Made by a program: the position numbers and the translations under genes
Notes under the pieces: generated by a model
Database searches by the model: none
What the model was told of the DNA's origin: nothing
Seen by the model: only the letters and a program-made list of their open reading frames with translations
DNA from: a virus
Taxonomy: Duplodnaviria; Heunggongvirae; Uroviricota; Caudoviricetes
Virus record (IMG/VR): IMGVR_UViG_3300033062_002687
Reading direction: 5' to 3' (one strand)
Length of the DNA: 64,000 nt
Shown here: positions 1 to 55,575 of the stretch, piece by piece
Numbering within the stretch: position 1 is the stretch's first letter
Layout: each line of letters opens with the position of its first letter

Positions 1-59
1 AATCGCACCCAGGTCTGAAGTTTAGAAGACTTCTGTCCTGTCTCCTAGACGATATGCTC
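1..59 (-). tRNA. tRNA-Arg(TCT), 3' end runs off the window
   Basis: Anticodon arm GAAGT-CT-TCT-AA-ACTTC, D-arm and start of T-arm visible on the reverse strand. Confidence 0.85.
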
Positions 60-61
60 AA

Positions 62-132
62 TGGGATCACCGGTGATCGCAACCGGATCGCGTAGTCCCA
101 AGCTACGAAGGCGTCTATTACCCCATGACCCC
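62..132 (-). tRNA. tRNA-Pro(TGG)
   Basis: Acceptor GGGGTCA/TGATCCC; anticodon arm CGTAG-CT-TGG-GA-CTACG. Confidence 0.9.
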
Positions 133-140
133 ATATATTC

Positions 141-200
141 GAGGGAACAAACGACAAAGGTTTCATTTTTGCATCGAAGTAACCCTTGTCTACGCCACTC
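141..200 (-). ncRNA. Candidate small structured RNA between tRNAs
   Basis: 10-bp stem GACAAGGGTT/AACCTTTGTC plus terminal GAG/CTC pairing; no ORF. Confidence 0.4.
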
Positions 201-202
201 GA

Positions 203-276
203 TGGGCAAGGCACGATTCGAACATGCGGCATCATCCTTGTAAGGGGTGCGTTCTTCCTAGCTGAACTACTTGCCC
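203..276 (-). tRNA. tRNA-Val(TAC)
   Basis: Acceptor GGGCAAG/CTTGCCC; arm CACCC-CT-TAC-AA-GGATG; TTCGAAT T-loop. Confidence 0.92.
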
Positions 277-278
277 GA

Positions 279-370
279 TGAGCGTACCAGGAATTGAACC
301 CGGACTTCAGAGTCTCTGCTTTTTTTTCAAAACCGTAGCTCTGTGCGCTTATCCATTACGCGATACGCCC
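279..370 (-). tRNA. tRNA-Arg(ACG) with 19-nt intron at 37/38 (314-332)
   Basis: CAGAG-CT-ACG-G[intron]A-CTCTG; BHB-like central helix CTAC/GCAG with an A34:C mismatch. Confidence 0.85.
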
Positions 371-373
371 AAA

Positions 374-446
374 TGTCCCCAGCGAGATTCGCACTCACGT
401 CTACTGCTCGAAAGGCAGTTATGCTTGTCTTCTACACCATAGGGAC
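374..446 (-). tRNA. tRNA-Glu(TTC)
   Basis: ACTGC-CT-TTC-GA-GCAGT; acceptor GTCCCTA/TGGGGAC. Confidence 0.9.
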
Positions 447-448
447 GA

Positions 449-527
449 TGGGATTGAAGGGATTTGAACCCTCGGCCAACCGATTAAGAGTCGGTTGCTC
501 TTAATTACCATGCTGAGCTACAATCCC
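449..527 (-). tRNA. tRNA-Lys(CTT)
   Basis: ACCGA-CT-CTT-AA-TCGGT; acceptor GGGATTG/CAATCCC. Confidence 0.92.
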
Positions 528-530
528 ATT

Positions 531-635
531 GTGTCATAGCGGTGACAGATTTCTCTGCCACCTTAGACGACAACTCTACTTACCAACGGTGCATGTCCAT
601 TCCCGTTGTTTCCTCATTGTTACGCCGTGTGACAC
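531..635 (-). ncRNA. Candidate ~105-nt structured ncRNA
   Basis: Terminal stem GTGTCA/TGACAC enclosing a CAACGG/CCGTTG hairpin and a GGTGGCAGA-GAAA-TCTGTCACC GNRA hairpin. Confidence 0.5.
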
Positions 636-646
636 TATGACTATGA

Positions 647-761
647 TGGCTCGAGGGAGGATCGAACTCCCGTTCTCACGGATTCTTAGTTGAAATCCGC
701 AGGCATATAATTCACGGATACCAAGTATCAGCCGTGCGCCTTGCCACTTGGCCATCGAGCC
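647..761 (-). tRNA. tRNA-Ile, intron-containing, with GAT and TAT anticodon cassettes
   Basis: Acceptor GGCTCGA/TCGAGCC; CACGG/CCGTG stem; 43-nt insert 683-725; two BHB-like solutions. Confidence 0.85.
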
Positions 762-764
762 AAA

Positions 765-836
765 CGCCGATGCTGGAAATTGCATCCAGAGTTGAAGAGT
801 GACAATCTTCTATGTTTCTGCTTACACCACACCGGC
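765..836 (-). tRNA. tRNA-Asp(GTC)
   Basis: GAAGA-TT-GTC-AC-TCTTC; G73. Confidence 0.88.
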
Positions 837-838
837 AA

Positions 839-911
839 TCTGGGCTGTGAGATTTGAACTCACATAGCATGGTCTACAGCCACGAGCTCTTCCAAGTTAA
901 GCTAAGCCCAG
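839..911 (-). tRNA. tRNA-Tyr(GTA), archaeal type
   Basis: CGTGG-CT-GTA-GA-CCATG; C1:G72, A73 and short variable loop (archaeal/eukaryal identity set). Confidence 0.9.
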
Positions 912-943
912 GTATCTAACTACTAATTAACTACTAATTACTG

Positions 944-1450
944 TCAAATTAGTAGTTGATTCGTCTTTTCATGAATAATATAATGAACGTTTGATTTACA
1001 TGTATGATATTTCTTCGATATATAATTATATGACATCCCTGATAAACTATCAAGCCTCATATTTTTTATTTCTTCATCACTAAATTTTCTTAATTTGTTT
1101 GCAGCAATTTTTGCTGATCTCATACGAATATATGGAGACTTATCCATCATATTGTCAGATGCTGTACCTATTTTAATATTTTTAAAATCATTATCTAATG
1201 AATTACCGTTCACATGTCTGACACATATGCCTTTTTTAAATAAATATTCACCATACAATTGATAAGCCGCTAATCTATGAACATAGATCTGGGCAAATTC
1301 TCCATGAAATTGTACCGTGAATCTCCAATATTTGTATTTAGTATTCTGATAATTTAATTTTCTGAATTTTTTACCAAATTTTACTCTTCCATCTGACAAA
1401 ACTCTATATCCTTTTTCAAATGCCTTTTTGATTGCTTCCTTTTGATTCAT
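944..1450 (-). CDS. HNH homing endonuclease with C-terminal HTH
   Basis: YVHRLAA...VRHVNGNSLDNDFKNI...SDN motif; start moved to MNQKE because the listed ATG at 1483 lies inside the tRNA-Met intron. Confidence 0.85.
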   Translation of the reverse strand: MNQKEAIKKAFEKGYRVLSDGRVKFGKKFRKLNYQNTKYKYWRFTVQFHGEFAQIYVHRLAAYQLYGEYLFKKGICVRHVNGNSLDNDFKNIKIGTASDNMMDKSPYIRMRSAKIAANKLRKFSDEEIKNMRLDSLSGMSYNYISKKYHTCKSNVHYIIHEKTNQLLI

Positions 1451-1462
1451 GTTAAAATAAAG

Positions 1463-1568
1463 TAGCGGTACCAGGACTTTCATTCAGCAGCTTTATGCTA
1501 ACTGATTTTGAACCTGGGACCTATGGCTCATGAGGCCATCGGGAACGACCATACTCCCCCATACCGCT
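1463..1568 (-). tRNA. tRNA-Met(CAT), probably initiator, with 30-nt intron in the T-loop (59/60; 1477-1506)
   Basis: A1:U72 acceptor AGCGGTA/TACCGCT; ATGGC-CT-CAT-GA-GCCAT; BHB helix TTCA/TGAA restores the TTCAAAT loop. Confidence 0.85.
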
Positions 1569-2008
1569 ATAGAAACATCTGTTCCGCAATGGAACAAAGA
1601 ACCAAAGAAAAAAACGCACACAGCAGAACAGGACGTTCCTATAGTCGGATATGACAACCAACTTGCGTTGATTGTTGATCCATCGGAAACCCGACGATCT
1701 CTCCGCCTTGTGGACAACCAGCTATCTTGATTGACTGCTGATATTTCCTTTCCTGTTTTACTGCTGTTAAGCTCATTTTGTGTGAATTTATTATACCTCT
1801 ATAATCATGTGGGAGCAAAATGCTCCCGAGTTCTTATCCAGCGCCAGTGTCTAACGACCAATGCTCCAAAAATTGGTCGATCATCAACACACTATATGCC
1901 TAGCACCAATCTTGTTGCAAAATTGATGATCATCAGCATATCTTAACCAAATCCGATATTGTTGGACCCGATTGAAAGCCAACCTTAATGTTAGGAAAAT
2001 AAATGGAT

Positions 2009-2260
2009 TTATATATTTTTCTGTTTCTCAAGATACTCATTTTCAAGATTATCGAGAGCCTGTAAGACTGCCCGGATGTCTGGCTTTCCGACATTGGAGT
2101 ATGCATGAATTAACAGAACTAGTGTATCTCTTTTTAATCCAGAGCTTGCGAGCTTCTTAAATGCCCTGGAGATCATGCGAATCTCTCTAGCTAATTTCTC
2201 AGATGTGTCCTCTAATTTTTTAAGCTCGACTAATGTTACATTCTCCTTTTCTTTTTCCAT
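2009..2260 (-). CDS. Hypothetical protein
   Basis: 83-aa ORF with purine-rich RBS-like upstream sequence. Confidence 0.7.
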   Translation of the reverse strand: MEKEKENVTLVELKKLEDTSEKLAREIRMISRAFKKLASSGLKRDTLVLLIHAYSNVGKPDIRAVLQALDNLENEYLEKQKNI

Positions 2261-2281
2261 TGTTTCATCCCCATTTATTTT

Positions 2282-2659
2282 CTATTCAAAGGCAGAACCG
2301 AGATTTGAACTCGGAGTTCCTCGTCTGCAGCGAGGCGCCTTGCCGGATTTGACCATTCTGCCGTAAATGTAAAAGACAGCTCTTCCGTGCTTTTTGGCAA
2401 ATCTTACCTTGAGCATTCTCTTAAGCTTTCTGTTCCATCGATCAACCTGCCAATAATGCTTGAACCAATATGTTTCTGGCCGGAACTTTGTTTTATCTGG
2501 ATATCCACGACAACCGTCTCTCCGTTCTATCCACGAATCATAATAAGGTTCTATGAACAAATCATTCTCGATGATTAATTTCTGTGGAATTAATGGTTCT
2601 GGATAGACCCATCCACTTCCACGCCTATCTTTTTGAGTCATTCGCTTTCTGTTTCCCAA
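2282..2659 (-). CDS. Hypothetical basic protein whose C-terminus reads through tRNA-Cys
   Basis: 125-aa ORF overlapping the upstream gene end. Confidence 0.55.
   Translation of the reverse strand: MGNRKRMTQKDRRGSGWVYPEPLIPQKLIIENDLFIEPYYDSWIERRDGCRGYPDKTKFRPETYWFKHYWQVDRWNRKLKRMLKVRFAKKHGRAVFYIYGRMVKSGKAPRCRRGTPSSNLGSAFE
2290..2362 (-). tRNA. tRNA-Cys(GCA)
   Basis: CCTCG-CT-GCA-GA-CGAGG; U73; acceptor GGCAGAA/TTCTGCC. Confidence 0.92.
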
Positions 2660-2976
2660 GTACCATCACGTTTGTAATTAAAGACCTTGAATTTATCTTC
2701 ACGATCATAGCTTACATACTGTTTTATGATGAACTTTTTGTATCGCTTTTTAAAGGCAGCTAACAGATAATGAGGATGAGATACATTTGTTGAACATTGT
2801 ATCAGATACACATTACATTCATCATCAATTGCAAGCAAATCAAAAAGCGAATATGCATCTTTGGGTGATACGAACCTTCCTGTCCGCTCGACGATAGCTA
2901 CATTTAAACCTTTTTTTTCCAATAATTTTATAAGATTTGCGCGGTTTTTGTTACCCTTTCTCCTAGGATGTTTCAT
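2638..2976 (-). CDS. Hjc-like Holliday junction resolvase / PD-(D/E)XK nuclease
   Basis: KGN...LEKKG...FDLLAID...YLIQCST pattern. Confidence 0.7.
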   Translation of the reverse strand: MKHPRRKGNKNRANLIKLLEKKGLNVAIVERTGRFVSPKDAYSLFDLLAIDDECNVYLIQCSTNVSHPHYLLAAFKKRYKKFIIKQYVSYDREDKFKVFNYKRDGTWETESE

Positions 2977-2981
2977 TTATC

Positions 2982-3645
2982 TTAGCATGAAGCTTGGTTG
3001 TTTTTAAAGTTTTTGCCTTCGAGCTTGCTAATGAACTGATATATGCCGCAAAGATCAGTGTATTCTGTTGAATGTATCTCCTTTATCTTCGCCTGATTGT
3101 AGGTTGAAAGTGTGTCCAAAAATCTCTTAGAGTAAACTGAGGATATCCCAAGATAAAATTCCTCGGCGACTCCATGAAGCATCTGATCGATCTTCTTGAA
3201 CCAATGCGTAATCTCGACGTCGCGCGTACCTGCAAACCTTGCCGCAGACTGTCCTCCTTTTCGATGCTTATGCGGCACCAATGATTTTTCATGAAACACC
3301 TCCTCAATCTCACCATCTGAATAAACCTTAGCGAAAAAGCATTCGTCATAATCCATAACAAGGATTTGATACATCAATGTTTTTGTATCAGGAAACCTTA
3401 ACAGATCCTTACCACAAAAATAATGTTTTTGCTGCTTATCATATGGCTCAACTGTTAATTGTTCATCATTCCAATATAAAGATATGCCATCTGTTTTCTT
3501 GGCATTACTAAAGATAGTGAGCTATTTTGTTAAGGCCCGCAGTAGTGCTCTGCCTAGTTTGCCTGTCCTTAATGTTCTTTGCTGACATAATCTCTTGCCT
3601 TATGTTTGGTGCTTGTGCACCGACGGGGATATGAATACTTATCAT
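2982..3645 (-). CDS. aRF1/eRF1-like peptide chain release factor (N+M domains), expressed via a +1 frameshift at 3513-3508
   Basis: SD GGAGG + ATG 3645; NIKD (NIKS-like) in frame 0; YFCG (YxC) and KHRKGGQSAARF in the +1 frame; junction CTT TAG. Confidence 0.85.
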
Positions 3646-3664
3646 TTTCTTACCTCCATTTAAA

Positions 3665-3796
3665 CGCCCAAGGCCGGAGTTGAACCGACACGCCTTTTAC
3701 AGCCCCTGTTTTCCAGTCCTGGCTTCAAGTCCTGATATTCGATTCCTGGCTCGAATTAGCAGACAGGTGAATCAGGCCATAGATTCTATCTTGGGC
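3665..3796 (-). tRNA. tRNA-Ser with a 46-nt insert holding GCT, CGA, TGA and GGA anticodon cassettes
   Basis: Acceptor GCCCAAG/CTTGGGC, G73, long variable arm, CCTGT/ACAGG anticodon stem. Confidence 0.85.
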
Positions 3797-3800
3797 AAAA

Positions 3801-3891
3801 AGCCACCATCCAGAGTTGCACTGGAATTAGCTAGTCACCTGGATATATATTTCCTACAGGCTAGCTGAACTTTCTGTTGTTCTATGATGGC
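3801..3891 (-). tRNA. tRNA-Thr(TGT) with 19-nt intron (3836-3854); unusual C33
   Basis: GCTAG-CC-TGT-A[intron]A-CTAGC; clean BHB CCTG/CAGG with TAG and TGA bulges. Confidence 0.82.
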
Positions 3892-3936
3892 ATACTACTT
3901 TAAAGCTGCACTATCCTACTACTATACTACTTTCAA

Positions 3937-4085
3937 TGCGGGTGTAGGGAATCGAACCCTATCCGCCACCTTGTGGCATCAGATTTCTTCCGAATGGATT
4001 TAAGTTCCGTCTTGAGTGACGTCCTAAGTTCTAAGTTTCGTCTCATTGATCTTAGTCTGACGCTTCTCCATCCAGCTCCACCCGC
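3937..4085 (-). tRNA. tRNA-Leu with a 65-nt insert holding AAG, TAG, CAA and TAA anticodon cassettes
   Basis: Acceptor GCGGGTG/CACCCGC, A73, long variable arm GCCAC/GTGGC, TCAGA/TCTGA stem. Confidence 0.85.
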
Positions 4086-4090
4086 AAAAA

Positions 4091-4163
4091 TGGACTCAGC
4101 GGAATTTGAATCCGCAGCCTATTCCTTGCAAGGGAATTGCTCTGGCATTAGAGCTATGAGCCC
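4091..4163 (-). tRNA. tRNA-Ala(TGC)
   Basis: ATTCC-CT-TGC-AA-GGAAT; G3:U70. Confidence 0.92.
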
Positions 4164-4215
4164 GTTTGTTACTTATATTTTTCATATAACTATGCCATTT
4201 TACATAACTATTAAC

Positions 4216-4322
4216 TGGGACTGACCGGATTTGAACCGGTACCGACTGGTTCCTCCTTCCTTTCATCCTATAACTCTCTGAGACCTGGAGCCAGTAATTC
4301 TGCCTGATTAAAATACAATCCC
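4216..4322 (-). tRNA. tRNA-Trp(CCA) with 34-nt intron (4251-4284)
   Basis: ACTGG-CT-CCA-G[intron]A-CCAGT; central helix CTCC/GGAG. Confidence 0.88.
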
Positions 4323-4323
4323 G

Positions 4324-4478
4324 CGGGCATCGAAGGACTTGCACCTTCTTCCTCCTGTTCACTGTTATCTTCACCAAGCACAAGAGTGGTCCCTCGTGGA
4401 AATGACATCAATGGACTTTGGTTTCCATTGGTGAATGATGCTAACAGACAGGCGCTCATCTATATGAGCTTGATGCCC
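4324..4478 (-). tRNA. tRNA-Asn(GTT) with 82-nt intron (4360-4441)
   Basis: CCTGT-CT-GTT-A[intron]A-ACAGG; central helix CTGT/ACAG; intron stem TTCACCAA/TTGGTGAA. Confidence 0.88.
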
Positions 4479-21555: not shown

Positions 21556-24500
21556 TCATGAAGTGGTAATTGACCATGGTAGTAATGAATAATACATCTG
21601 AGGATAAATATCCCTTGGAATTGTTGCAAAAAAATACAAGTTTACAGTATTGCCTCCTGAAATATTGTAATTCAAGCTTCTTTGTGTATTATTCTCCAAT
21701 ACGATTGATGAAACTGCATCATTAACTGTATTGACCCTGAAATTGCTTGCTGGCAACGAATAGCCGCTCAAAACTGAACCTGTAAGATCATAAGCAATAA
21801 TTCCAACCTGCAGAAGAGTATTTCCTGTATTATTTATCATCAAAGGCAATTGCGCGCTGACATTTACCATACCTGGAGTCATTATAGCAAAGCTAACTGA
21901 ATCCAAAGATACTTTTGATGAAAGTAGCTGATAATATTCACAATAGCTCGTATTCAATAAATATGTTGTGTTATGAAAAAATCCATCATAGATACTTACA
22001 TTCAGATCATATAATCCTGCTGGATAATAATACTGCATTGTTATATTACAATCAGCCCTGCTATCAACATCTCCTGTTGGAGTTATTGTGCATGTTCCCT
22101 GGAATATATTTGAATCCAATTTTATCTGAGCAGCTGCAGCTGACAAATTATTATTCCCACCAACTGCCTTTATACTGAAACTTATTGGCATGTTTACAGT
22201 TGAAGCTTGAACTGGCATTGTCGCATTGCATGATGAATTCAAGATTTGTGCTATAGCCTCATGATATAGATCCTCGAAATTAAAAGTAACCGAATCATTA
22301 CCAAGCATTCCAACTGAATTATTGGCATATATCGTCACTGAATAATTACCATCAGTTAATGCAGTATTATTTATGAAAGAGAACTCACTTATATCATAAG
22401 GATTCTTTGTATAGCAACCTGAATTATTTCCTTCACAGATAAAAATATCCTCAATTCTCGTATCTACACTGCAACCATCACACTGATAATTCAATGATAC
22501 TATATTCACCCTGTCGAGACTTGTAGTTGAAACCAAGAAACTATATCCATTTCCACTATTATCATAAAGAACTCCATCTATTGTATAATAGCATTTATCT
22601 GTCGAACTGTTAGCAAAAATTGATAAGTTATACATCTGTCCTGTATTATATGCAACAAGTTGTGTTTGAATTGAAGGAGAAATATAATTAATTGTTGCTG
22701 ATGTATAAAAATAATTCGAGTTAGCTTCAAGCCCACATGTATCCCAGATTGCTCCATGCTTTCCGACAGTAAACCTTGTCCCGCCATCAGAACTAAAATT
22801 TGCTCTTAGTGAAATTGTTATCGAATCAGAAGATGTAATATTTAGATACGTACTACCAGACCTAAAAAAGCCATCTGATATAATTCCCCATCCAGCAAAC
22901 CAGACATATTGGTTCCAATAAGCGCCCATATATTCTGAGTTTCCAATATCTCCACTACTTGTTCTTGAGAAAGTATCGAAGTCGATATATGATAATATTA
23001 GCCTGAACCGACTATCATTTATCCAGATTTTATCAATATTATCAATGCTTGATATGGTTCCATTTATCTCAACAGGATAATCTGAAGTCCCATTTATTAG
23101 CTGAAGATTCTCCGGATATGTTATATTAACATATACTGAATAATCAGATTCTGAACAATTCTCAACCTTTTCTGTAGTATCTATTAGATAACCTTCTAAA
23201 GAAACATTCCAGAAACTTCCCGTTGACTGCCAGTCTATATCGACACAGGTTGATGTTCCGTCACCTGCATAACCAATATAATATTGGTCTGCCGAGGCTG
23301 CATATTGAACGCAGTTACTCCATATCCCACAATTAACCTCTGAGGTTGGGTTTGTATCTGAAACAGAAGCCCAGTTGAAACCAAAGAATTCTGTGCTGTT
23401 TCCTGTAATAAAATACCAAGTCCCATCTTTTTCAAAAACTGAAAGTGCCACTCCATCCCAAGCACTTAGACCGCCAACTATTCCATCATCCTGTTGCCAT
23501 GTAGAACCAGTCCAGTTAAATCCATAGAAATCACCCTCTGCTCCTGCAATAAGATACCAAGTTCCGTCTTTTTCAAATATTGATGGAGCATTATACTGAC
23601 CTATATATCCAAGACCATTCACTATTCCATCATCTTCTTGCCATGTTGTTCCTGTCCAGTTGAATCCATAAAAAGTTCCATTATTCACTCCCGTAATTAA
23701 ATGCCATGTTGAGTCCTTGTAGAATACTGAAGGAATTAGGGAAGAACCTGTAATATCTAATCCAAGAATTATTCCATCATCCTGTTGCCATGCAGAACCA
23801 GTCCAGTTGAATCCGAAAAAATGGTATGGTGCAGGTTGATTATAATAACTTCCTGAAATCAAATACCATGTTGAGTCTTTATAGAAAACAGAAGGACTCG
23901 AAGCTTGACCAACATCAGTTAATCCTATGATACTCCCATTATCCTGTTGCCATCCTGCTTCTGTCCAATTGAAACCAAGGAAAACTCCATCTTCATTTCC
24001 TGAAATCAAATACCAAGTTGAGTCCTTGTAGAATACTGAAGGAGTTAAATAAGTATCTTCTGTAACCAAGCCATTCGATATTCTTTCATCAATATTCCAT
24101 TTATTAACAGATGATTCAATACAAACATTACCTACGGAAACATTCCAGATTCCTGTATCTGCATCACAAACTCCTGCACCGTCGCAGAGACCATTATCTC
24201 CATGCATAGTATAATTATTCACGCAACCAAGATATGACTGGGAACAATCATCCTTCAAATCCTCAGATGATAATTCATTTGCACAAGAACCTGCACTGCA
24301 AACCTGACAGGTTGGGCAATCAGTTATTGCTGAAGTGTTGCAAGCTCCTGCTCCGTTACAGAGACCATTGTATTCCTGAACAGCATATCCACTGCAAGTT
24401 GTAGAAACATTGCATTCGCTCTTTGCATCTTCATTTGAAAGTTCATTCACGCAACTTCCACCACTACACTTCATACAAAGTGAGCAATTTTCATCATCTG

Positions 24501-26877
24501 TGCATTCTGCTGGTGGAGCTTCTTCAATATTCATTTCTACATACATATTATAGATAGTCAATTCCTCTGCAGTATAAAAACCTATTGTTGGTCTTAAATT
24601 TGATTGCATCTCTGAACCTTTAACCATAGTGACATTTAAGGCGTTAATACCTTGTTTCCACGCCCTAATTTGCCTATGTGTTGTATTAAAATCAGAAATA
24701 TTAACTTCATAAACTGCTATTCCTCCAACATCGGGACACAAACTTTCCGCAACTGTCTGATATCCTAATATTCCAGCGTCATTATAAATATCAAAAGAAC
24801 ATTCCAGAGAATCTTTATTATCACTAAACATAAGATAGTCACCAGGATAATTATAATAATGGTCATTTCTTGGATTTCCGCCAGGATAATCATTATACCC
24901 TATAAAAGCATACATAGTGCTTATATCTGTTGTGCCATTCCATTTAAAATAAAGATAACTCATATTCACCCCCCAATAAGAAGTGAGATTTAAAAAAGCT
25001 TCATCAGCAGCGGTTGTTGTCATTAAAGAATTATCCTCAATTCTCCATGAAGTTCCCATCACTTCTGTCCAATTCTTGTCTAATATTGTGTTGTTAGGTC
25101 TTATGAATGTATCTTCGTATGTTACTATTGATGGAGCTTCTTCAACAGGATTCCATAAGAAATATGGATATGAAGCTCCCTCATTTATGCCCCAGATGTT
25201 TGTGAAGTCGAAGCCAGTATAACTGGATTCTTGTTTAGCTTGAACTATAGACAGATTAGTAGCAGTTCCAGAAGAACAACCATCTCCAGAGATTCCAGTT
25301 GATTCAATGTAATATACATTGTTGCAAATTACAGTTCCACCACCAGCTATGTTATAAACTGGAACTGTCCCATTTGTCGTTATTATATTTATAAATCCTG
25401 CATAATAAACATCATTCACGTTCACAGTGTATGATTTGGAAAATCCGATTAAACCACCGATACCTCTCAAAGTATTATCAGAATATTCAACCTGAACATC
25501 CATCTGTGAATATGAATCAGTTATAGTCGCATCTGCCTGAACTTCTCCGAATAATCCCCCTATTTCTGTTTCAGTATCTATTGATGTAGCATTAATTTTT
25601 CCTTTTGTGTAAGAATCGTTAAGATAAGTTCCATAAAACTCTCCTGAAAATCCACCAATGTGCATATCCGCAGAAATATTTCCTTCAAAACTTGAATTGT
25701 ATATATTTCCACCAGACAAATAACCATAAAATCCACCAACATACTTCAATGTTGGAACATCAATCCTTCCTGTAACGTGAACATTTTGTGTTATTGATAC
25801 CTCACCATCAACTGCTCCAGCAAGAGTTCCAACACAACATTCACCATATCCACCTGTTTCATCCGTTCTTTGTATGTAAAGATTTTCAAAATTTACATTT
25901 TTAATGAAAGCTGAAGAATCGATTGAACCAAAAAATCCCCATCCACCTATCTCTCCATTATCAAAGACAGGAATGTAGAGATTGCTTATAGTATGACCAC
26001 GACCATCGAATGTTCCTTCAAAATAATTTGTCCAATCTCCGACAGGTGTCCAGTTGCCCCAGGAACCCATATCAATGTCATTGCCAAGAGCATAACTTAC
26101 AGTAAGATTATCTCTCATAGCATCGAGTTCAGCAGGTGTTGTTATGATGAAAGGATTTTCTGGTGTTCCGATTTCGACTAGTGGCGTTTGAGGAATTTCC
26201 CCTGTATTTGTTATGAATATCTCATCGAACCAACTACCTAAATCACCACTATATAATTTTATATTATCTAACCCTCCTGCATCTTTTGATGCTGAAGCAA
26301 TGTCAATCCCATTAACCTTACAAGCTATATCTGAACCTGAAAAATTAAAAGTGATATTAAGCCATGTTCCTGCGAGTCTTGTTATGCCTGAATCATACCA
26401 ACTGGAATTAGCATAATAATAGTAATTAGTTGGGGAAAAATCTGATGTATAAATAAATGACATTCTTATAGCTGTTCCATATACATAAAAACCTGAAGTT
26501 TGTGAACCTCCATTATCATACCATCTCAAACTTACTATTCCAGCAAATGTGCTATTTTGGATTATTATGGAAGCAATAGAATTAGGAGCATCTAATTTCA
26601 AGCTGTAAGTTCCCAATGAACTCCGAGTTGAATCATATACTGCTGTTCCCATAGCATCTGCGTCACTCCACCCATAATCAAATGCAGAGCTTCCATTGAT
26701 AGTTATGGGAGTTCCGTTAAATGCAATATCTGTGCTTTCCAAGCCATCTGTAAAATAATAAGTTCCGTTGTAATAATAGTCAGTCCTGTCTGTAGATTGT
26801 GTTGCAGAAACAGACATAGCAGAAGCTAAAGATAAAATAAAAATAAAAAATAATAAATTAATTTTTTTTATATCCAT
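21556..26877 (-). CDS. Large secreted adhesin-like protein (GLUG-like repeats, beta-propeller repeats, Cys-rich modules)
   Basis: Signal peptide; VGG/IGG GLUG-like repeats; 5x PSVFYKDSTWYLISG..FNWTG repeats. Confidence 0.85.
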   Translation of the reverse strand: MDIKKINLLFFIFILSLASAMSVSATQSTDRTDYYYNGTYYFTDGLESTDIAFNGTPITINGSSAFDYGWSDADAMGTAVYDSTRSSLGTYSLKLDAPNSIASIIIQNSTFAGIVSLRWYDNGGSQTSGFYVYGTAIRMSFIYTSDFSPTNYYYYANSSWYDSGITRLAGTWLNITFNFSGSDIACKVNGIDIASASKDAGGLDNIKLYSGDLGSWFDEIFITNTGEIPQTPLVEIGTPENPFIITTPAELDAMRDNLTVSYALGNDIDMGSWGNWTPVGDWTNYFEGTFDGRGHTISNLYIPVFDNGEIGGWGFFGSIDSSAFIKNVNFENLYIQRTDETGGYGECCVGTLAGAVDGEVSITQNVHVTGRIDVPTLKYVGGFYGYLSGGNIYNSSFEGNISADMHIGGFSGEFYGTYLNDSYTKGKINATSIDTETEIGGLFGEVQADATITDSYSQMDVQVEYSDNTLRGIGGLIGFSKSYTVNVNDVYYAGFINIITTNGTVPVYNIAGGGTVICNNVYYIESTGISGDGCSSGTATNLSIVQAKQESSYTGFDFTNIWGINEGASYPYFLWNPVEEAPSIVTYEDTFIRPNNTILDKNWTEVMGTSWRIEDNSLMTTTAADEAFLNLTSYWGVNMSYLYFKWNGTTDISTMYAFIGYNDYPGGNPRNDHYYNYPGDYLMFSDNKDSLECSFDIYNDAGILGYQTVAESLCPDVGGIAVYEVNISDFNTTHRQIRAWKQGINALNVTMVKGSEMQSNLRPTIGFYTAEELTIYNMYVEMNIEEAPPAECTDDENCSLCMKCSGGSCVNELSNEDAKSECNVSTTCSGYAVQEYNGLCNGAGACNTSAITDCPTCQVCSAGSCANELSSEDLKDDCSQSYLGCVNNYTMHGDNGLCDGAGVCDADTGIWNVSVGNVCIESSVNKWNIDERISNGLVTEDTYLTPSVFYKDSTWYLISGNEDGVFLGFNWTEAGWQQDNGSIIGLTDVGQASSPSVFYKDSTWYLISGSYYNQPAPYHFFGFNWTGSAWQQDDGIILGLDITGSSLIPSVFYKDSTWHLITGVNNGTFYGFNWTGTTWQEDDGIVNGLGYIGQYNAPSIFEKDGTWYLIAGAEGDFYGFNWTGSTWQQDDGIVGGLSAWDGVALSVFEKDGTWYFITGNSTEFFGFNWASVSDTNPTSEVNCGIWSNCVQYAASADQYYIGYAGDGTSTCVDIDWQSTGSFWNVSLEGYLIDTTEKVENCSESDYSVYVNITYPENLQLINGTSDYPVEINGTISSIDNIDKIWINDSRFRLILSYIDFDTFSRTSSGDIGNSEYMGAYWNQYVWFAGWGIISDGFFRSGSTYLNITSSDSITISLRANFSSDGGTRFTVGKHGAIWDTCGLEANSNYFYTSATINYISPSIQTQLVAYNTGQMYNLSIFANSSTDKCYYTIDGVLYDNSGNGYSFLVSTTSLDRVNIVSLNYQCDGCSVDTRIEDIFICEGNNSGCYTKNPYDISEFSFINNTALTDGNYSVTIYANNSVGMLGNDSVTFNFEDLYHEAIAQILNSSCNATMPVQASTVNMPISFSIKAVGGNNNLSAAAAQIKLDSNIFQGTCTITPTGDVDSRADCNITMQYYYPAGLYDLNVSIYDGFFHNTTYLLNTSYCEYYQLLSSKVSLDSVSFAIMTPGMVNVSAQLPLMINNTGNTLLQVGIIAYDLTGSVLSGYSLPASNFRVNTVNDAVSSIVLENNTQRSLNYNISGGNTVNLYFFATIPRDIYPQMYYSLLPWSITTS
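23360..24060 (-). repeat. Five intragenic ~140-bp repeats (propeller blades)
   Basis: Recurrent ccagttgaa / tcctgttgccat / gagtccttgtag strings. Confidence 0.8.
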
Positions 26878-42531: not shown

Positions 42532-45500
42532 TTATGATTTTTTTATTGCTTTAAGTATTGGAATGCATAATACCATTATTACAAAAATAACAAGCAACAC
42601 CAGCTTATTTGACCATAATATGCTCCAGACTCCTGTTAAAAACGGCCCTGCGACCTTGCCTGTTGTTTCGGTGAATGATAATATCATTGCGCAATATGTC
42701 GCTGCAGCCTGATTCACTCCCTCATCTTTGCTAAAATCAAATGCTCCACTAACTTTCTTACCATTCTGATCAATTTCCTGACCGGCTACATCTGTATTGA
42801 ATGTCATCCTATATGTATAATTGACGCAATAATGCAACAACTCATTAAAACAGCCTCCGCTATATTGCACAGGAATACTTCTTGCCATCTGTTTCAAATC
42901 TTTTTCAGTGCAAAATTTTGGAGATCCTGTAGCTGATACTGTTCCTGGCGGAAACCCTTCTCCATATGTTGTACACCAGGAATTTATGTTACAGCTTCTT
43001 AGTAAGTCAACTCCGGCATGTTCAGCTACAACTGAAACAGTCTCTGCATAGTGCAATCCATATATTTTTATGAAGCGTATCTTAATACTGCCTCTTTTCA
43101 AGTTAATTCTGACTCTATTGTAATTATTCACATTGGTATAATCCGGCTTTCCTAAAAATGTCATGACCCATGGAGTAGCTGATATGCCTATTGTATCTGT
43201 TTCAGCATCCCATGTCAAATGATCAAGATCAGGATTTGACATATCAGAATTTCGCAATGCCATCCACTTCTGATCCCCGGCTGTAAATGACATTTGCACT
43301 TTATATTTTTTCGATGCATTCCAGTTATGACCAAGATCCCCTTCTGTAAGATCAACCTTGCTTAATGTTGATCCAGAACTACCATCAAGCATACTTCCTG
43401 ATTGCATCCTTAAATAGCCTATTGCATAATTCTGGCCAATCTTTGTCGAAAAGCTTTCAGCCCAAGCGTCAACTCCGAATGTCACATCTGCATCTGCTGA
43501 CAGCTCATACCCAATTTCAACAAAAAGATCTGAAGTTGGACACTTCAAGCCATCTAACACCAAAGAAGCTTGGGTCAAGCTTGAGCTTGTGGTTGACATT
43601 CCAAAATAACCTGTTCCTGTTGTAGGGGTTGATCCTATATAAGACCATCCATGCTGACGAGGATCATCCCCAGCGAAGAAATCCTCTACATAAGAACAGG
43701 CACTTGCAGTTGGAATCGATGACTCTAAAACAGTACCTGAACATGTTCCTGAAGCAAGTTCTGTTCCCTGAGCATCATACATATGAATTACGACCTTGGT
43801 CATTCCTGAAGATATCATAACTATTGGATCAAAAATTAACATCATTCCAGACATCTTATAATTTATAGCTTGATATGTCGCGCTATCACCTAATGATGCT
43901 TTGAAGATTAATCCTGTTAAGTTAGGACTTGTATATGTTGCTGTTACCTGAATCACATTTGATGACACGGTGCAGGTCGGAGTAATTGATGCTGGACCAA
44001 CTAACAAACTGGATTGAGGAGGACGACTTATATATGCGCCAGAACCACTTGATCCAATAATCAAAATATCAAGATAATCATCATTATTCAGATTTGCCGG
44101 AATTGCCTCAGCAGTATCCAACGAACTATTCTGAAGCCTAACAATTGACGATGGATTTAGATAAATGATTGCTTTCGGAGAAACCAATTCAGAATAATCA
44201 TCTTTGGTAACATCAACAGCAAAAATTGATTGAGTTCTTACTGAAGATACAAAAGAGTCTACTGAACTTTGAAAATTGTTTCCAGTTTTGAATTTTTTCA
44301 CGTTCAATGATTGTCCCAACGAATATGAAAAAGCCGGATAGAAATTAGAACCATCTTTAAAAAATACAGCTCCTGATACCAATGGATTAGAAATATTAGT
44401 GCAAAAATCATATTCATACACATTTTCAGTTTGAACTGCATTAAAATATGTATATCTTGTTAAATTTGTTCCTTCTATTGCAAATATCCCTATATCATCA
44501 TGCATAATCATATTCATGCGTGTCCTATATGTATCTTCTTGAGATGTAATATTTGACCAGGATAATCCTGACCAAAAGCCGTATAGATTAATCTTTTTAA
44601 TTCCGATTCCGATTCCATCCATGTAACCTGAGAGATAATAATAACTTCCTTTGATAGCAGCCACAGAAACCTGATCATGATATTCATCTCCGGAGGTAAA
44701 TTTTTCAATAAATGAACCATAATTAGCATCACCAACTATCATTGTTTCCCGCGGAAGACTCATATCCCTTACAGTAAGCAATGACCAAAAAGATCCAGCA
44801 GTTGCAAACGTACCATATATAGTTGCATAATTTGCTCCTGATTTAGAATATACTGAAGTCCATGCTGATGTTGCAAAATTATATTTTTTTATCTGAACAG
44901 AGCTTGGATTACCTGCGGTATAAACCAAAAACAAATCACCACCATCATAAGATACTGATCTGAGTAAAACTGCATTAGCTATATCATGTGATATTGTTAC
45001 CCATGTTGTAGACCCAGAATTTAAATTGCTCACAACACTCAGATTATTATAATTGCCCGAGATTGCATAACAAATTCCTTCATCACAATCTATCCATTTT
45101 CCTGGTGTACCAGTCATATAACCATTTGCTGGTGAAAACCAGTCTCCGCAACCACCTTTGTCACCAACCATTTGACTTCCAATAAAATAAGTTAAAGTTA
45201 TTCCATCAGTTGTCTTAAAATATTTGCGAGTAGTTAAATCAACACCATAGTAATATTCTCCATCTTCATCCATAATTACAAATTTACCAACAGTATTGCG
45301 TTTTCTCCATCCCCAACCATCCCAATAAATAATCTGACCCGAAATATTTCTGCAATTAGCTTCAGTATGACCAGGATCAACACATGATGATCCATCATTG
45401 AACTCGTCAAATGGTGCAACACAATCATCATATACTGTTCCCAAGCAATCTATTGAACTTTTACATTGTATCCAACCCATATTAGCAGCGTGTAAACCCG

Positions 45501-48500
45501 TAACATTACCAATTATATTCCCTTCGCTATTATCCAACAAGCTGCTGCATCCAGGATCCGATGGAAAATCAATAAATCCATCAGCATCGTTATCAATACC
45601 ATCATTACATTGAGGATTTGTTTCGTCATCATCTATTGCACTTGTACATCCTGGATCAGCTGGATAGTCTATCTTGCCATCACCATCATTATCAATACCA
45701 TCATTACATTGCGAAGCTTCTGTGATGTCTGATGGATCTGAACATCCCGGATCAGCTGGATAATCTATCAAACCATCAGCATCATTATCAATACCATCGC
45801 TGCACTGCGGAGGGGGGGGTTGTATTAATGTAACATTAAATAAACAGGTGACTATGCTATCTGAAGCAGTGGTATCACACATTTTTGAAATATCATCAAA
45901 TCTACCAAGTGGATCATGAACTGATACACTCCATGTTCCTTGAGGAATATTAAATTTTCCACCACCATTAACAGTTATTTCCCAGATCCTTGGTTCTCCT
46001 CCTCTTGTGAAATTTTCAACTGAAATCCTTACTCCTGTAACGAGATTAGTGAGTACTCCATCAAATATAAGATAACGTATTTTTTCAATAGTCGTTCCAT
46101 TATGCCAAATTAAATTTCCTTCGTAAGTATTTGTTTGGTTAAATTTATAATAATGAGAATTAGTCACATAAATTTTCCAGTGTGCTCCTTTCTGCACAGA
46201 AGAAATTATGCCAAAATTAGCGAATTCATTCGTAAGATTGTGATAGCATGATAGATATTGTGAATCATCTATTGTACCACCAAAGGATTCATGAGAAGGT
46301 ATCCAATCAGCATCCAGACAAATACTCATAACATCTCCACCAGGATCATAACCCTGAGTCTGAAACATCACTCTAGTACCCGGTACTGAAACATTAGCTG
46401 ACGGGACTAAATTCAACAAAGAAAGCTCTGGTTTTCCACTTGCTTCAAGATAAACAAGACCAGAGTTATCATAAAAAAGCAGATCAAGTACATTACGAGT
46501 ATTTCCAAGTCTTACTGGAATAACGTGATACGGATAATAATAATACCATAATCTTGATAATGACTCAGAAGCCTCTACTTGATAAAATGATCGGGTATTA
46601 TTTAAAGGAAGAGTTTCATCAACATAAGAAACAGCATAGTTTATTTGATAATATCCTCCCCCCATATGATCCATGCATGTGAATAAAATTTCCTTATCAG
46701 GATGACTTGAATCCAATTCAACAGCAAGCAGATATTCTTGAAGCCCGCCAGAAATATCATATTCCCAATTAGGAACATCGCATGCTGGAGCTTGAAAAGT
46801 ATTATCCGTCATCGTTGAATCTACACGATAAGTATATTTATCCCAACATAAAAGATGCCGACTAAAATAAGCTTCTTTATAAGCCGCACAAATATCATTA
46901 TTCATTTCGACAGGATTTGTACAAGTGCCAAACGCAATAGTTCCTGCACCTTCCGGATGGCCAGAATATGGTGTATATGTTCCTGTAAGGGTATTTTTAA
47001 TAGTTCCATTATCCGCATTAAAAACATAATAAGTAACACTACCAAAAATCAGATCCCCCGAACCTGAACAACCACTAACAAATATATCTCCTGTTGAAGT
47101 AATCATTGGTGCTGGTCTTCGCCAGTTCCCTGTAGACTGACTTACCCAATCTTGATTTCCTAATTCATCGACACATACCACTGCAAAATTAGAGTTATAA
47201 AAAAGAGCTTCAATGTCATTTTCTCCTCTAATATCTCCGACTGAAGGAATAATATCACCACTATAACCAGCAACATTAGTATTATTGAATTGATTACAAT
47301 TAAATATCCCATTAGTTAAATCACATGAAGCATATCCTGCCGCTGTTCTCCAAAAACAAATTGGAGTATTAGACTCATCATATTCACATCCGATTCCATC
47401 CTGCCTTTTTAAAAGACCTGATACTACACTATCTCTCAAATATAGCGACCCATCATAACAATAAGACTGTGAATGATTGTTCATGTTATTTAGCAAAAGT
47501 ATCGTCAGAGTTTTGTAATTGCTACTGCATGGTTCAGGAATAACAGTCAGCGTTGCATTATCTCCTATGTCAAGCGATGCTTTCACATTAAAAGAAGTGT
47601 CTCTGATATAAAGATGATTATTCCAAGTATGTGCAATTTCTATTTGCCCATCTCCATTGAAATCTCCGGTGACAACATTTTCAACTCCACTATAAATATA
47701 AGATTGGTTTAAAGAAAGATTAATCTGAGCTTTGACTTTCATATCTCCAAAATAAACTTGTTTTACTTCAGGTTTATAATCCCTGCTCATATTTGCTGTT
47801 GGACTCCACCACATATTCCACCAGTCATAATTATTTGCAGAAGGATATGTGTAAGAATAACTCATGTTCTGCGTCTCATTCAATTGCGGTGGCAATGGTG
47901 GTGATGGTGGAATTATCGAACTTCTATTTGTTTCAAAAAAGTTAGTTCCAAGATTAGAACTGAAAAAAATATCTGGAAATTGACTCCCACCCCATTCTCC
48001 AAGAAACATACTATTTGTACTATTCAAAGGAATACCTACCATATTTAAATTAGAACTATTGGAGGAAAAAATTATATATCCTGCACCGGTTATTGCCTCA
48101 TCTCCATTTTTCGAATTCAATAGTTCAGTTCCAATAAAATCATAAGAAGACCAATCATGCCCACCTTCATAACTTCCAGATATGTAACTAGAAATGTCCT
48201 TTTTATACCAGCATCCGCAAGTTGGACATCTTTGATCAATGTCAGCTTGCTGTTCAACAGCACCAGTATCTATATTTTGGCAGGTTATTGTATCTGTTTT
48301 TCTTCCAGAAGTGCTGTGCCAACCTCTACTGTGATATATGTAGAAACACATCTGCTCATTAACATTGTCCCCATCTGAATCTCTTTCCCAAATGTTACTA
48401 ATGTATCTTTTTCCATCTGTGCAATCAGCAGGATTGTTGCATAGAGCCGCATCATTCTCACAATGCTTTGCATAATACTGAAAAATTCCACCTGAATTGA

Positions 48501-49398
48501 ACACCTTTATATCATCTATATCAGATGATGTTTTTTCTTCACCAACAATGAAATTATTTGAAAGAATTGTTGGAAAATTTCTTTGTCTTGCCCATGATAA
48601 GCTAAAAATTCCAAGATTTTCACTCATACTCGTGAAATCTGTTCCATCGTCTTTTATAATTTCAAATCCGACATTATTACTAACAGGATTTCTTGCATAA
48701 AAAACAGCTTCAAGATGTCCATCTGAATCCAAATCCTTGACTGCTGGTCGCTGAGTCAGATTATATGATACAATATAATCGTTTGAAGTTGAATGATCTG
48801 TACATGAAACATAAGTTGGAGACATCTGACAATAGACTATTCCAAACTGCATAACTGCAAAACATCCATAGGTTGTTCCACTTATCTGTGCACATGTAAT
48901 AAAATCACTCAATGGACTTGGTCTCATACCAACATAATTCGCAGATTCTTGCGTAATTGTTGAGCCATCAAAACAATATGTACTGATTTCTTCACTTCCA
49001 CCAACAACAACAATCCTTAAACGATTCACATTACTGGTAGGAACACTACATCCAGTAGAAAGAAGAGTTATTGTGCTATGTCTTCCTATATCTTTAAAAG
49101 CTTTAAGATTAAATGATGAATCAAAAATATATAAATTAGTTTCACTAACAGTTGCATATTCAACATTGCCATCATAATCTATATCACCCAAAGCAAAAGA
49201 ATCACTACTTCCAAACTGAATTTGTTTAGTAACAGAGATATTAGTAAAATCAACATCTCCACCAAAATATCCTGTGTAATGCTGCCAATTAAATGCAGGA
49301 TTATCTCCATATTGATACCAACTTTTAAGCTCTGAATATGCAACAACAGATGTCATGCAGACAAACAACATCATAATAAATATTAAAATTTTTTTCAT
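42532..49398 (-). CDS. Giant secreted, C-terminally anchored surface/virion protein
   Basis: Signal peptide; FG-GAP-like GD.D.DG motifs; 3x QC.DGIDND.DG.ID.P.DPGC; C-terminal TM. Confidence 0.88.
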   Translation of the reverse strand: MKKILIFIMMLFVCMTSVVAYSELKSWYQYGDNPAFNWQHYTGYFGGDVDFTNISVTKQIQFGSSDSFALGDIDYDGNVEYATVSETNLYIFDSSFNLKAFKDIGRHSTITLLSTGCSVPTSNVNRLRIVVVGGSEEISTYCFDGSTITQESANYVGMRPSPLSDFITCAQISGTTYGCFAVMQFGIVYCQMSPTYVSCTDHSTSNDYIVSYNLTQRPAVKDLDSDGHLEAVFYARNPVSNNVGFEIIKDDGTDFTSMSENLGIFSLSWARQRNFPTILSNNFIVGEEKTSSDIDDIKVFNSGGIFQYYAKHCENDAALCNNPADCTDGKRYISNIWERDSDGDNVNEQMCFYIYHSRGWHSTSGRKTDTITCQNIDTGAVEQQADIDQRCPTCGCWYKKDISSYISGSYEGGHDWSSYDFIGTELLNSKNGDEAITGAGYIIFSSNSSNLNMVGIPLNSTNSMFLGEWGGSQFPDIFFSSNLGTNFFETNRSSIIPPSPPLPPQLNETQNMSYSYTYPSANNYDWWNMWWSPTANMSRDYKPEVKQVYFGDMKVKAQINLSLNQSYIYSGVENVVTGDFNGDGQIEIAHTWNNHLYIRDTSFNVKASLDIGDNATLTVIPEPCSSNYKTLTILLLNNMNNHSQSYCYDGSLYLRDSVVSGLLKRQDGIGCEYDESNTPICFWRTAAGYASCDLTNGIFNCNQFNNTNVAGYSGDIIPSVGDIRGENDIEALFYNSNFAVVCVDELGNQDWVSQSTGNWRRPAPMITSTGDIFVSGCSGSGDLIFGSVTYYVFNADNGTIKNTLTGTYTPYSGHPEGAGTIAFGTCTNPVEMNNDICAAYKEAYFSRHLLCWDKYTYRVDSTMTDNTFQAPACDVPNWEYDISGGLQEYLLAVELDSSHPDKEILFTCMDHMGGGYYQINYAVSYVDETLPLNNTRSFYQVEASESLSRLWYYYYPYHVIPVRLGNTRNVLDLLFYDNSGLVYLEASGKPELSLLNLVPSANVSVPGTRVMFQTQGYDPGGDVMSICLDADWIPSHESFGGTIDDSQYLSCYHNLTNEFANFGIISSVQKGAHWKIYVTNSHYYKFNQTNTYEGNLIWHNGTTIEKIRYLIFDGVLTNLVTGVRISVENFTRGGEPRIWEITVNGGGKFNIPQGTWSVSVHDPLGRFDDISKMCDTTASDSIVTCLFNVTLIQPPPPQCSDGIDNDADGLIDYPADPGCSDPSDITEASQCNDGIDNDGDGKIDYPADPGCTSAIDDDETNPQCNDGIDNDADGFIDFPSDPGCSSLLDNSEGNIIGNVTGLHAANMGWIQCKSSIDCLGTVYDDCVAPFDEFNDGSSCVDPGHTEANCRNISGQIIYWDGWGWRKRNTVGKFVIMDEDGEYYYGVDLTTRKYFKTTDGITLTYFIGSQMVGDKGGCGDWFSPANGYMTGTPGKWIDCDEGICYAISGNYNNLSVVSNLNSGSTTWVTISHDIANAVLLRSVSYDGGDLFLVYTAGNPSSVQIKKYNFATSAWTSVYSKSGANYATIYGTFATAGSFWSLLTVRDMSLPRETMIVGDANYGSFIEKFTSGDEYHDQVSVAAIKGSYYYLSGYMDGIGIGIKKINLYGFWSGLSWSNITSQEDTYRTRMNMIMHDDIGIFAIEGTNLTRYTYFNAVQTENVYEYDFCTNISNPLVSGAVFFKDGSNFYPAFSYSLGQSLNVKKFKTGNNFQSSVDSFVSSVRTQSIFAVDVTKDDYSELVSPKAIIYLNPSSIVRLQNSSLDTAEAIPANLNNDDYLDILIIGSSGSGAYISRPPQSSLLVGPASITPTCTVSSNVIQVTATYTSPNLTGLIFKASLGDSATYQAINYKMSGMMLIFDPIVMISSGMTKVVIHMYDAQGTELASGTCSGTVLESSIPTASACSYVEDFFAGDDPRQHGWSYIGSTPTTGTGYFGMSTTSSSLTQASLVLDGLKCPTSDLFVEIGYELSADADVTFGVDAWAESFSTKIGQNYAIGYLRMQSGSMLDGSSGSTLSKVDLTEGDLGHNWNASKKYKVQMSFTAGDQKWMALRNSDMSNPDLDHLTWDAETDTIGISATPWVMTFLGKPDYTNVNNYNRVRINLKRGSIKIRFIKIYGLHYAETVSVVAEHAGVDLLRSCNINSWCTTYGEGFPPGTVSATGSPKFCTEKDLKQMARSIPVQYSGGCFNELLHYCVNYTYRMTFNTDVAGQEIDQNGKKVSGAFDFSKDEGVNQAAATYCAMILSFTETTGKVAGPFLTGVWSILWSNKLVLLVIFVIMVLCIPILKAIKKS
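45520..45810 (-). repeat. Three QCxDGIDNDxDGxIDxPxDPGC repeats
   Basis: Repeated ttatcaataccatc DNA strings. Confidence 0.85.
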
Positions 49399-55300: not shown

Positions 55301-55575
55301 TAGCTATCATAGCTTCCGACATACACATAGCCATTGGCTATTGAAGGAGAGGAATATACTAAATTATTTGTATGATAGGCCGCTGTAAGCAGTTCATCAA
55401 CCACAGGAAAATCAATACCATCCCAACGAGAATGATTCAGATATCTCCCAAACATAAACCATTCATTCAAACCACCTTCAGAATCCTGTGCAGACACATA
55501 TATAGACCCGATAACTAGGAAAATCAGTATACTAAATAAAATATTTATTAATTTCTTCATATTTTTCATTTTCAT
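52345..55575 (-). CDS. Secreted PQQ-type beta-propeller repeat protein
   Basis: 8x SSPAIANGYVY..YQLNA repeats; start placed at MKMKNMKK. Confidence 0.85.
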   Translation of the reverse strand: MKMKNMKKLINILFSILIFLVIGSIYVSAQDSEGGLNEWFMFGRYLNHSRWDGIDFPVVDELLTAAYHTNNLVYSSPSIANGYVYVGSYDSYVYQLNATNINQFISKFATSSAIDSSPAIANGYVYIANQDGYLYQLNSTDVSKLISTYFIGATLSSPAIVNGYVYISDYFNGDVYQLNATNISKLVAVYPTYDYIDSSPAFANGYVYITAWSQVYQLNATDISKLIAVFPDMGAVTSSPAVADGYLYFGGGDGNLYQLNATNISKLVSIYSTGNAEAIQSSPAIANGYVYFGSHDNNVYQLNANNVSQLISIFVTGGMIGSSPAVSDGYVYIASEDDILYKLDSANISDLITKFSIGASFSSPAIAKNYVYVGGNDGNIYQISTLSFLTEDGDSSVMAFLNDIWDFVTFDIWEKLLGIEMAVNNIRNDTIILNEKLDAAKTLESPKMLIQGTEYTIGDIGKTWLQLLTSGNEYVSNATCFVDIHKPDGTYLYTAQLMNYLSQGIYYYDLIIPSIVGVYPVAATCAYQTGMVSFNATNGQITIGTQYLVQNYTATWLYDNVEWRIDESLNLTNGTIGTIYRLNFNMTFANVIVPNFTSQMIVEWSGRWNGNAGDDVTIRVWNYSSSSWLALPSLIEQHGTTRYTLSNSITIPNYNLTAMGLIQNGIIILKFNDTAMADVIKDNIQNDQVLIKFVTLGTGIISEIKGSSEIHVSSPTGRLYCIETLCGDINPECAIFTNESDLGEPQGMILDNITITNDYGIDTNAVYEYETALGLDCTGVLSILRNSNGTITDVYNQTTFRSGLKDNCILSLPIYFTSSEPSVVYELKFDNYLKWEIEYYKNLVALYNLTIYNYCIPLGISFNHTYTIPLATFPTQETILTGCDRALDDLYWFYYFYDESQSVTVTGEYESFLSEAQWYYPKLREHHDLIQTYNIKNNQNVILNDTSVIKNQINNLTVSLNPNSSAVENLLTRFYFSGGTEYYSGNDGLLVIQFFKGMNPLNNKSVTVKVFYPDMSTYLASTPMIFKEDGIYYYNFTIPSVLGVYTASAQVTEGGQTYYASHTFHVNKGLKAMIAK

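Follow-up and report, generated by a model that had tools for sequence, protein, structure and literature searches.

What is to be made of a gene that lies inside a tRNA array, closes after 45 codons and appears to go on in another reading frame? The question is raised by a small release-factor locus on the minus strand of the window, that is, the whole stretch of 64,000 nucleotides analysed here, with the following elements.

Positions 3652..3657, minus strand: Shine-Dalgarno sequence GGAGGT, recognised from the sequence and its anti-Shine-Dalgarno pairing energy.
Positions 3511..3645, minus strand: ORF1, 45 codons, with the first strand of the N domain, the E55 equivalent and a NIKS-like motif (NIKD).
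Positions 3507..3516, minus strand: predicted +1 shift site TAT CTT TAG T, of the form NTT, stop and pyrimidine that is found in 22/22 distinct loci.
Positions 2982..3509, minus strand: +1 frame, 175 aa, which completes the N domain (YxCGxxL) and holds all of the M domain.

ORF1 opens at ATG 3645, 6 nt downstream of the GGAGGT at 3657-3652 (pairing energy -10.7 kcal/mol), begins 3' of the GTS-loop position in the alignment, and closes with CTT TAG TAA (3513-3505). UAG would thus stand in the A site, and the codon after the shift is AGU (Ser). The +1 frame ends at TAA 2984-2982; with one base skipped, the joined product has 220 aa and its GGQ motif at residues 130-132. The original prediction had named the Shine-Dalgarno sequence, the start, the 45-aa frame with its CTT TAG TAA end, the continuation to 2982 for about 220 aa in total (45 codons plus 175 aa) and the location in a tRNA array, all of which were confirmed, the last by intron-aware tRNA calling. 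It had also held that the program-made ORF list contains only the 3' part; the list does give 2982-3377, but the 45-aa ORF is listed too, as a separate entry. As to the nature of the product, the joined protein matches Pfam eRF1_2 at 30.2 bits (cut-off 27.1), and residues 16-156 align across the junction to Halobacterium aRF1 (4af1) with E 3.9e-6, the NIKS-like, YxC and GGQ motifs being spread over both frames. The claim of an archaeal-type miniature factor is supported by both the match and the motif alignment, and that of a missing C domain by the coverage of alignment and profile.

A break of this kind could reflect an assembly error or a pseudogene, and in four DNA runs no read or contig covered the window site. 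The homologues bear directly on this point. Among the best 80 of 92 related loci from a metagenome scan, 29 (L002-L030) are close family members, while the other 51 are distant and represent full-length a/eRF1 or fragments where inspected. The same break splits 25 of the 29; one (L030) is continuous and three begin downstream of the site, so that the same kind of site is present in 25/26 informative loci. An identical site is found in an assembly that shares 89.7% DNA identity with the window (L002), the ORF1 peptide of the window recurs unchanged on three contigs, the largest of 140 kb, and five further database peptides (42-45 aa) terminate, at the peptide level, at the same residue as ORF1. 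The sole GTDB match (L082, 36% identity) also carries the site, on a 2.9-kb contig with 12 tRNAs that is probably misbinned in its Saccharibacteria bin. Once duplicates and near-duplicates (L002, L005, L015, L016, L021) were dropped, 22 distinct copies remained, with 34-72% identity; the presence of a CTT-stop site at the same position in homologues, set beforehand as a test, was found in this NTT form in 22/22. With pS near saturation, pN is below pS in 230/231 pairs upstream of the site and in 231/231 downstream, and by this comparison ORF1 and the +1-frame half are both under purifying selection. The continuous homologue P0005 (212 aa) aligns without gaps over the junction, with the two halves in register. 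Given the conserved site, selection on both halves and in-register continuous homologues, the break is, at the family level and as far as sequence comparison goes, neither an indel error nor a pseudogene, and the private inactivating indel that had been named as a refutation does not fit a family in which nearly all informative loci are split. An assembly error would have to recur in copies down to 34% protein identity, and a pseudogene would have to accommodate selection on both sides of the break and two site positions; we regard both as extremely improbable. Searches of IMG/VR found no member of the family and a search of INPHARED gave no match, while 13/14 database matches are fragments, gene callers giving the halves as separate proteins.

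The site itself varies within narrow limits. Among the 22 copies, which are kin so that their counts are not independent draws, it reads CTT TAG C in 10, CTT TAG T in 4, ATT TAG C in 3, ATT TAG T and TTT TAG C in 2 each, and CTT TAA C in 1. The P-site codon is accordingly CTT in 15, ATT in 5 and TTT in 2, with background use of 20% for CTT among Leu codons and 37% for ATT among Ile codons; re-pairing on AUU_U requires a first-position mismatch. The stop is TAG in 21/22, TAA in 1/22 and UGA in 0/22, and is always followed by a pyrimidine. The site lies at codon 45 in 18 copies (44 in one of them) and at codon 38 in 4. Position 38 is Leu in both classes, encoded by five different codons in the codon-45 class (CTT in 5/18) and by CTT in 4/4 of the codon-38 class; position 39 is Asn in 15/18 of the former and Ser in 4/4 of the latter, a contrast which indicates that UAG, and not the amino acid, appears to be selected. 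The codon-38 class takes three changes in 200/200 bootstrap trees; repeated independent origin is not claimed, as a single origin is unrejected (AU p 0.133).

Other signals around the site were sought as well, among them a putative stimulatory hairpin.

Positions 3483..3505, minus strand: 6-bp hairpin, present in the predicted fold, z -0.59 against shuffles.

The hairpin that had been seen 3' of the site does form in the window fold, but at chance level and without conservation: downstream folding across the 22 copies has a mean z of 0.03, with 1/22 below -2, which leads us to reject it as a stimulator, and no conserved stimulator was found there. The absence of an internal Shine-Dalgarno sequence, on the other hand, was borne out, with a pairing energy of -0.3 kcal/mol before the window shift codon, and values of +1.1 to -3.5 kcal/mol over the 22 copies, none in the strong tail. 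Tyr UAU stands directly 5' of the site in 17/18 codon-45 copies, and the E-site codon of prfB is the same. The case for a special E-site codon is weak, though, since TAT fills this column in 20/20 against a background of 79%, column 57 has TAT in 15/16 and the codon-38 class has TAT at the E-site column too. Suppressor tRNAs or UAG recoding were rejected, as no CTA, TTA or TCA anticodon is listed and table 11 leaves long ORFs open; a scan for promoters and terminators remained at chance level. What is conserved is an NUU codon that can re-pair, followed by a stop of the form UAR (UAG in 21/22) and a pyrimidine.

The same data speak to whether the halves might be made separately through re-initiation, or whether a base might be removed in the RNA by polymerase slippage or splicing. 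Gene callers do report the halves as separate proteins, but 5/22 copies only have a start codon at or before codon 30 of the +1 frame, at differing positions, and the N domain would be split in two. The T run at the site is only 3 to 5 long, and the junction, compared with a continuous homologue, loses a single base net, less than an intron would remove. This group of explanations is thus very improbable.

The protein family, mini-aRF1 (about 215 aa), opens with the strand that directly follows the GT(S/E) loop and extends to the end of the M domain; in alignments it lacks the C domain, helix a1 and the GTS loop, and the same alignments are the basis for the predicted fold of its shortened N domain. 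With residue numbers taken from our own alignment together with the cited eRF1 papers, the equivalents of E55, I62, K63, R68, Y125, C127 and GGQ are invariant in 22/22 copies, while D128 is replaced by G and F131 by L in 22/22, D and F being found at these positions in 17/26 full-length aRF1/eRF1. The motifs accordingly take the forms NIKD or RIKD, and YxCGxxL instead of YxCxxxF. Like canonical aRF1 (TIGR03676), mini-aRF1 has N and M domains with E55, NIK, YxC and GGQ; it differs in falling below the TIGR03676 cut-off (P0005 covers positions 22-258 of 403 with a score of 67, cut-off 234.7), in having no C domain, GTS loop or helix a1, and in forming a separate clade. Indeed, an 81-row quick tree, which left out 14 fragmentary or divergent rows and did not have R726 among its rows, separates the short proteins from 33 full-length aRF1/eRF1 with an SH-aLRT of 99, and a distant match on a 530-kb viral contig (L001) forms a long branch outside the family. 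As to a donor or host lineage, the family nests in no full-length group and its named neighbours gave nothing decisive.

Deeper members on the side of the short proteins are continuous, and some retain a short C-terminal part (P0073). Such a reduced part was seen in P0073, P0045, P0052, P0055, P0056, P0060 and P0061, which suggests that the C domain was lost stepwise. P0070 and P0076 are shorter continuous relatives (161-167 aa) that begin at the same strand and end soon after the GGQ helix, and continuous L030 ends (about 825-850) in TGG TAG where its relatives have one more helix, followed by ATG ATG, possibly through readthrough or error. Continuous P0005 groups as the sister of split L023 (100/99) in a 27-row tree, and continuous P0036 as that of split L082 (99/96), which implies more than one loss or gain of the switch. 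P0033 is another continuous member, and with at least three continuous proteins in the core clade the switch is also dispensable. Longer fused forms were looked for and none was seen, which is weak evidence.

We hold it reasonably probable that the gene encodes a miniature aRF1, likely viral, made through a predicted UAG-dependent +1 frameshift that is most likely under negative feedback by the factor itself. By analogy with prfB and mimivirus R726, the ribosome would pause with UAG in the A site, where termination and the +1 slip very probably compete, full-length output rising when termination is slow. With plentiful release activity, termination would follow and the 45-aa peptide would be dropped; with scarce activity, the peptidyl-tRNA would slip from CUU (or AUU, UUU) to UUU, AGY would be read as Ser and the 220-residue factor completed. 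The product would then hydrolyse peptidyl-tRNA at stops without contacting aEF1A through a C domain, and would supplement the termination capacity of the host much as the adjacent tRNAs would supplement decoding. The step by which the factor would feed back on its own site is a prediction by analogy. Since there is neither an internal Shine-Dalgarno sequence nor a conserved 3' structure, the efficiency of the shift may be low.

A close parallel is bacterial prfB (RF2) with its autoregulatory +1 frameshift at CUU UGA C, which slips at CUU_U, has UUU_U as a minority variant and is unshifted in a minority of genes (PMC5009743, in excerpt). The mini-aRF1 genes share the early in-frame stop, the bulk of the release factor in the +1 frame, the CUU_U slip, the UUU_U minority variant and a minority without the shift. 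They differ in an unrelated protein fold (of aRF1 type), in a stop that is UAG or UAA and never UGA, in the additional use of AUU, in the missing internal Shine-Dalgarno sequence, in two site positions and in a likely viral and archaeal setting. Another parallel is found in giant viruses: excerpts of PMC3521657 state that shifting at mimivirus CUU UAG C was demonstrated in E. coli and that R726 and Megavirus mg280 were proposed to compensate for a declining host factor. Here the likeness is a factor of a/eRF1 type, viral in those cases and likely so in ours, with +1 sites CUU UAG C and CUU UAA C, forms which account for 10 (CTT TAG C) and 1 (CTT TAA C) of our 22 sites, the window itself having CTT TAG T. 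The differences are that R726 and mg280 are genes of giant viruses of eukaryotes, contain a further stop that is read through and retain part of the C domain, whereas mini-aRF1, with about 215 aa, is encoded within archaeal tRNA arrays and has neither a1/GTS nor a C domain.

Loss of the C domain also recalls aVLRF-1, acVLRF-1 and the C-domain-less baeRF-1, which belong to the aeRF-1 superfamily but have no C-terminal Pelota domain, but mini-aRF1 has no N-terminal coiled coil and keeps the stop-reading domain, and the acVLRF1 score of the window protein (23.8) is below the cut-off (27.1). The C domain has a role in GTPase binding (excerpts of PMC2613156 and PMC3521657), and recycling involves ABCE1 (PMC10516650, in excerpt). 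A product without C domain and helix a1 might act in rescue, or might compete with host aRF1 by binding the A site and recycling poorly, the shift keeping a harmful protein low. Excerpts of PMC11277123 describe human eRF1 isoform 2 as binding pre-termination complexes, releasing weakly and lowering long-ORF translation, and a C domain is also missing from aVLRF-1 and from one baeRF-1 family (PMC6514570). Yet the stop-reading residues are invariant together with GGQ, continuous members exist, and a stop-dependent site ties output to termination whatever the product does; we consider this reading unlikely.

The missing GTS loop raises a different doubt about the favoured feedback by the factor itself, as the product may be inefficient at UAG and the host factor may be what the site senses. 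According to the same excerpts (PMC11277123), human eRF1 isoform 2 is without the first 33 residues, has far weaker release and prefers UGA; it begins at the same strand as mini-aRF1, helix a1 and the GTS loop being missing in both, but it is a splice isoform with a C domain, while the cut in mini-aRF1 is fixed family-wide. In human eRF1, reading of UAA/UAG has been linked to T32, D128 and F131, and that of UAG to E55 (PMC3632111, in part). By comparison with human eRF1, loss of the first 33 residues and the D128/F131 changes therefore count against reading of the own UAG, at which the product may not terminate. A factor biased towards UGA and poor at UAG would leave the site to gauge omnipotent host aRF1, switching the viral factor on when host termination falls. 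Such a bias would accord with the N-terminal cut shared with isoform 2, with the replacement of D128 and F131 in 22/22, and with UGA being absent from the shift site (0/22) while TGA closes 26/54 window ORFs. Against it, the equivalent of E55, the residue of greatest weight for UAG, is invariant, the human mutant data may not transfer to mini-aRF1, and the mimivirus also uses UAG C, so that no specificity argument is required for UAG. Three features would thus point to a UGA bias and one away. Stop usage settles the matter neither way: in a minus-strand count, 16/23 TGA stops of the window are ATGA, compatible with stop-start overlaps, and the final stops of the mini-aRF1 genes themselves (n=20) include 1 TGA and 4 TAG. 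For the UAG switch as such, it speaks that UAG closes only 3 of the 54 window ORFs, in no case with C or T as the next base; against it, UAG is not rare in the related loci, where it closes 16/95 mechanically called ORFs, 10 of them with C or T next, and the 4 TAG ends of the mini-aRF1 genes point the same way. Sensing of the host factor is a possibility that we rate as doubtful. Its broader form, in which widespread archaeal viruses would use a two-domain UGA-biased factor whose UAG site is a feed-forward sensor of host aRF1, not a prfB-style loop, and which would be a third convergent origin of shifty stops and the first archaeal termination-coupled frameshifting, is put forward tentatively.

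The setting of the gene bears on both host and carrier, and is defined by two further features.

Positions 3664..3797, minus strand: tRNA-Ser(GCU), interrupted at 37/38 by a BHB-type intron; its end lies 19 nt upstream of the ATG.
Positions 1..4478, minus strand: tRNA array of 15 genes with introns allowed, plus one cut by the window edge.

Seven tRNAs of the window array have introns, 5/7 with a BHB helix as found by script, and BHB helices (4/4) also occur in L005, L008, L010, L013, L016, L023 and L028; BHB tRNA introns at 37/38 point to an archaeal host. A tRNA ends within 100 nt upstream of the gene in 14/22 copies and lies on either side in 15/22. The tRNA-Ser(GCU) reads the AGY codon of the +1 frame; a fixed pairing with it was rejected, as the 5' neighbour varies among loci. 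An intron-bearing tRNA-Leu with a predicted AAG anticodon, which would read the CUU of the shift site, was seen in the window at 3936-4086 and in L023 at 1262-1406, its BHB helix being 4/4 in L023 and not found by script in the window; a tRNA-Arg with ACG lies at 277-371 of the window (helix 3/4). A34 tRNAs are unusual in archaea. In L010, L011, L012 and L018, the final codons of the gene run 9-14 nt into the 5' end of the tRNA that follows, so that tRNA processing would cut the mRNA.

The carrier is likely a large archaeal virus. Among 26 chosen ORFs scanned near the related loci, terminase was found in L013, L016 and L024, portal in L016, protein-primed polB in L020, polB in L008 and TROVE in L005. 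The window encodes HNH, ligase, Cas4-like and Mom proteins; 26 of its proteins were scanned without finding a virion hallmark gene, and the look-alikes of one ATPase are mostly viral clusters, which is a lead. The same cassette stands beside protein-primed polB in L020 and beside terminase or portal in L013, L016 and L024, which suggests exchange between unrelated virus groups. TROVE/Ro60 genes were seen beside tRNA arrays in L005 (3106-4928, by Pfam) and L025 (3201-5288, similar by eye), a short tRNA-like element after the former could be a Y-type RNA, and a DUF2828 gene lies beside the array of L019 (2176-3597). Elsewhere in the window, at least 19 otherwise dissimilar ORFs on the minus strand (6859-34989), PolX-like and ligase genes included, start with a common peptide of about 25 residues that contains W..[DE]S.RH.LAA.G, possibly a virion-packaging or targeting tag; predicted surface proteins of 1108-2288 aa with GLUG and beta-propeller matches occupy 21556-26877, 42532-49398 and 52345-55671.

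A literature search, with subscription journals mostly outside its scope, gave no account of an archaeal-virus release factor or its frameshift. Word searches for either were likewise negative in the accessible part of an archaeal recoding review (PMC8211752), an archaeal tailed-virus survey (PMC8651126), the release-factor classification with its one supplement (PMC6514570, whose main text has 0 mentions of frameshift), the HGTV-1 paper (PMC13532342) and the main text of the Borg preprint (10.1101/2024.11.05.622173). The same part of the recoding review lists few archaeal examples, namely fucA and haloviruses for -1 shifts and HSTV-2 as the one +1 case (PMC8211752). The control principle is thus known from bacteria and mimivirus, while no earlier description came to light for the host domain, the minimal protein or the second site position.

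Collectively, mini-aRF1 reveals a gene family hidden from annotation by the fragmentation of its database entries. Its conserved stop-dependent +1 site provides a ready reporter for the strength of archaeal termination, and the protein, as a natural minimal class-I factor of about 215 aa with neither GTS loop nor C domain, directly tests which parts are needed for stop choice, delivery by aEF1A and recycling.
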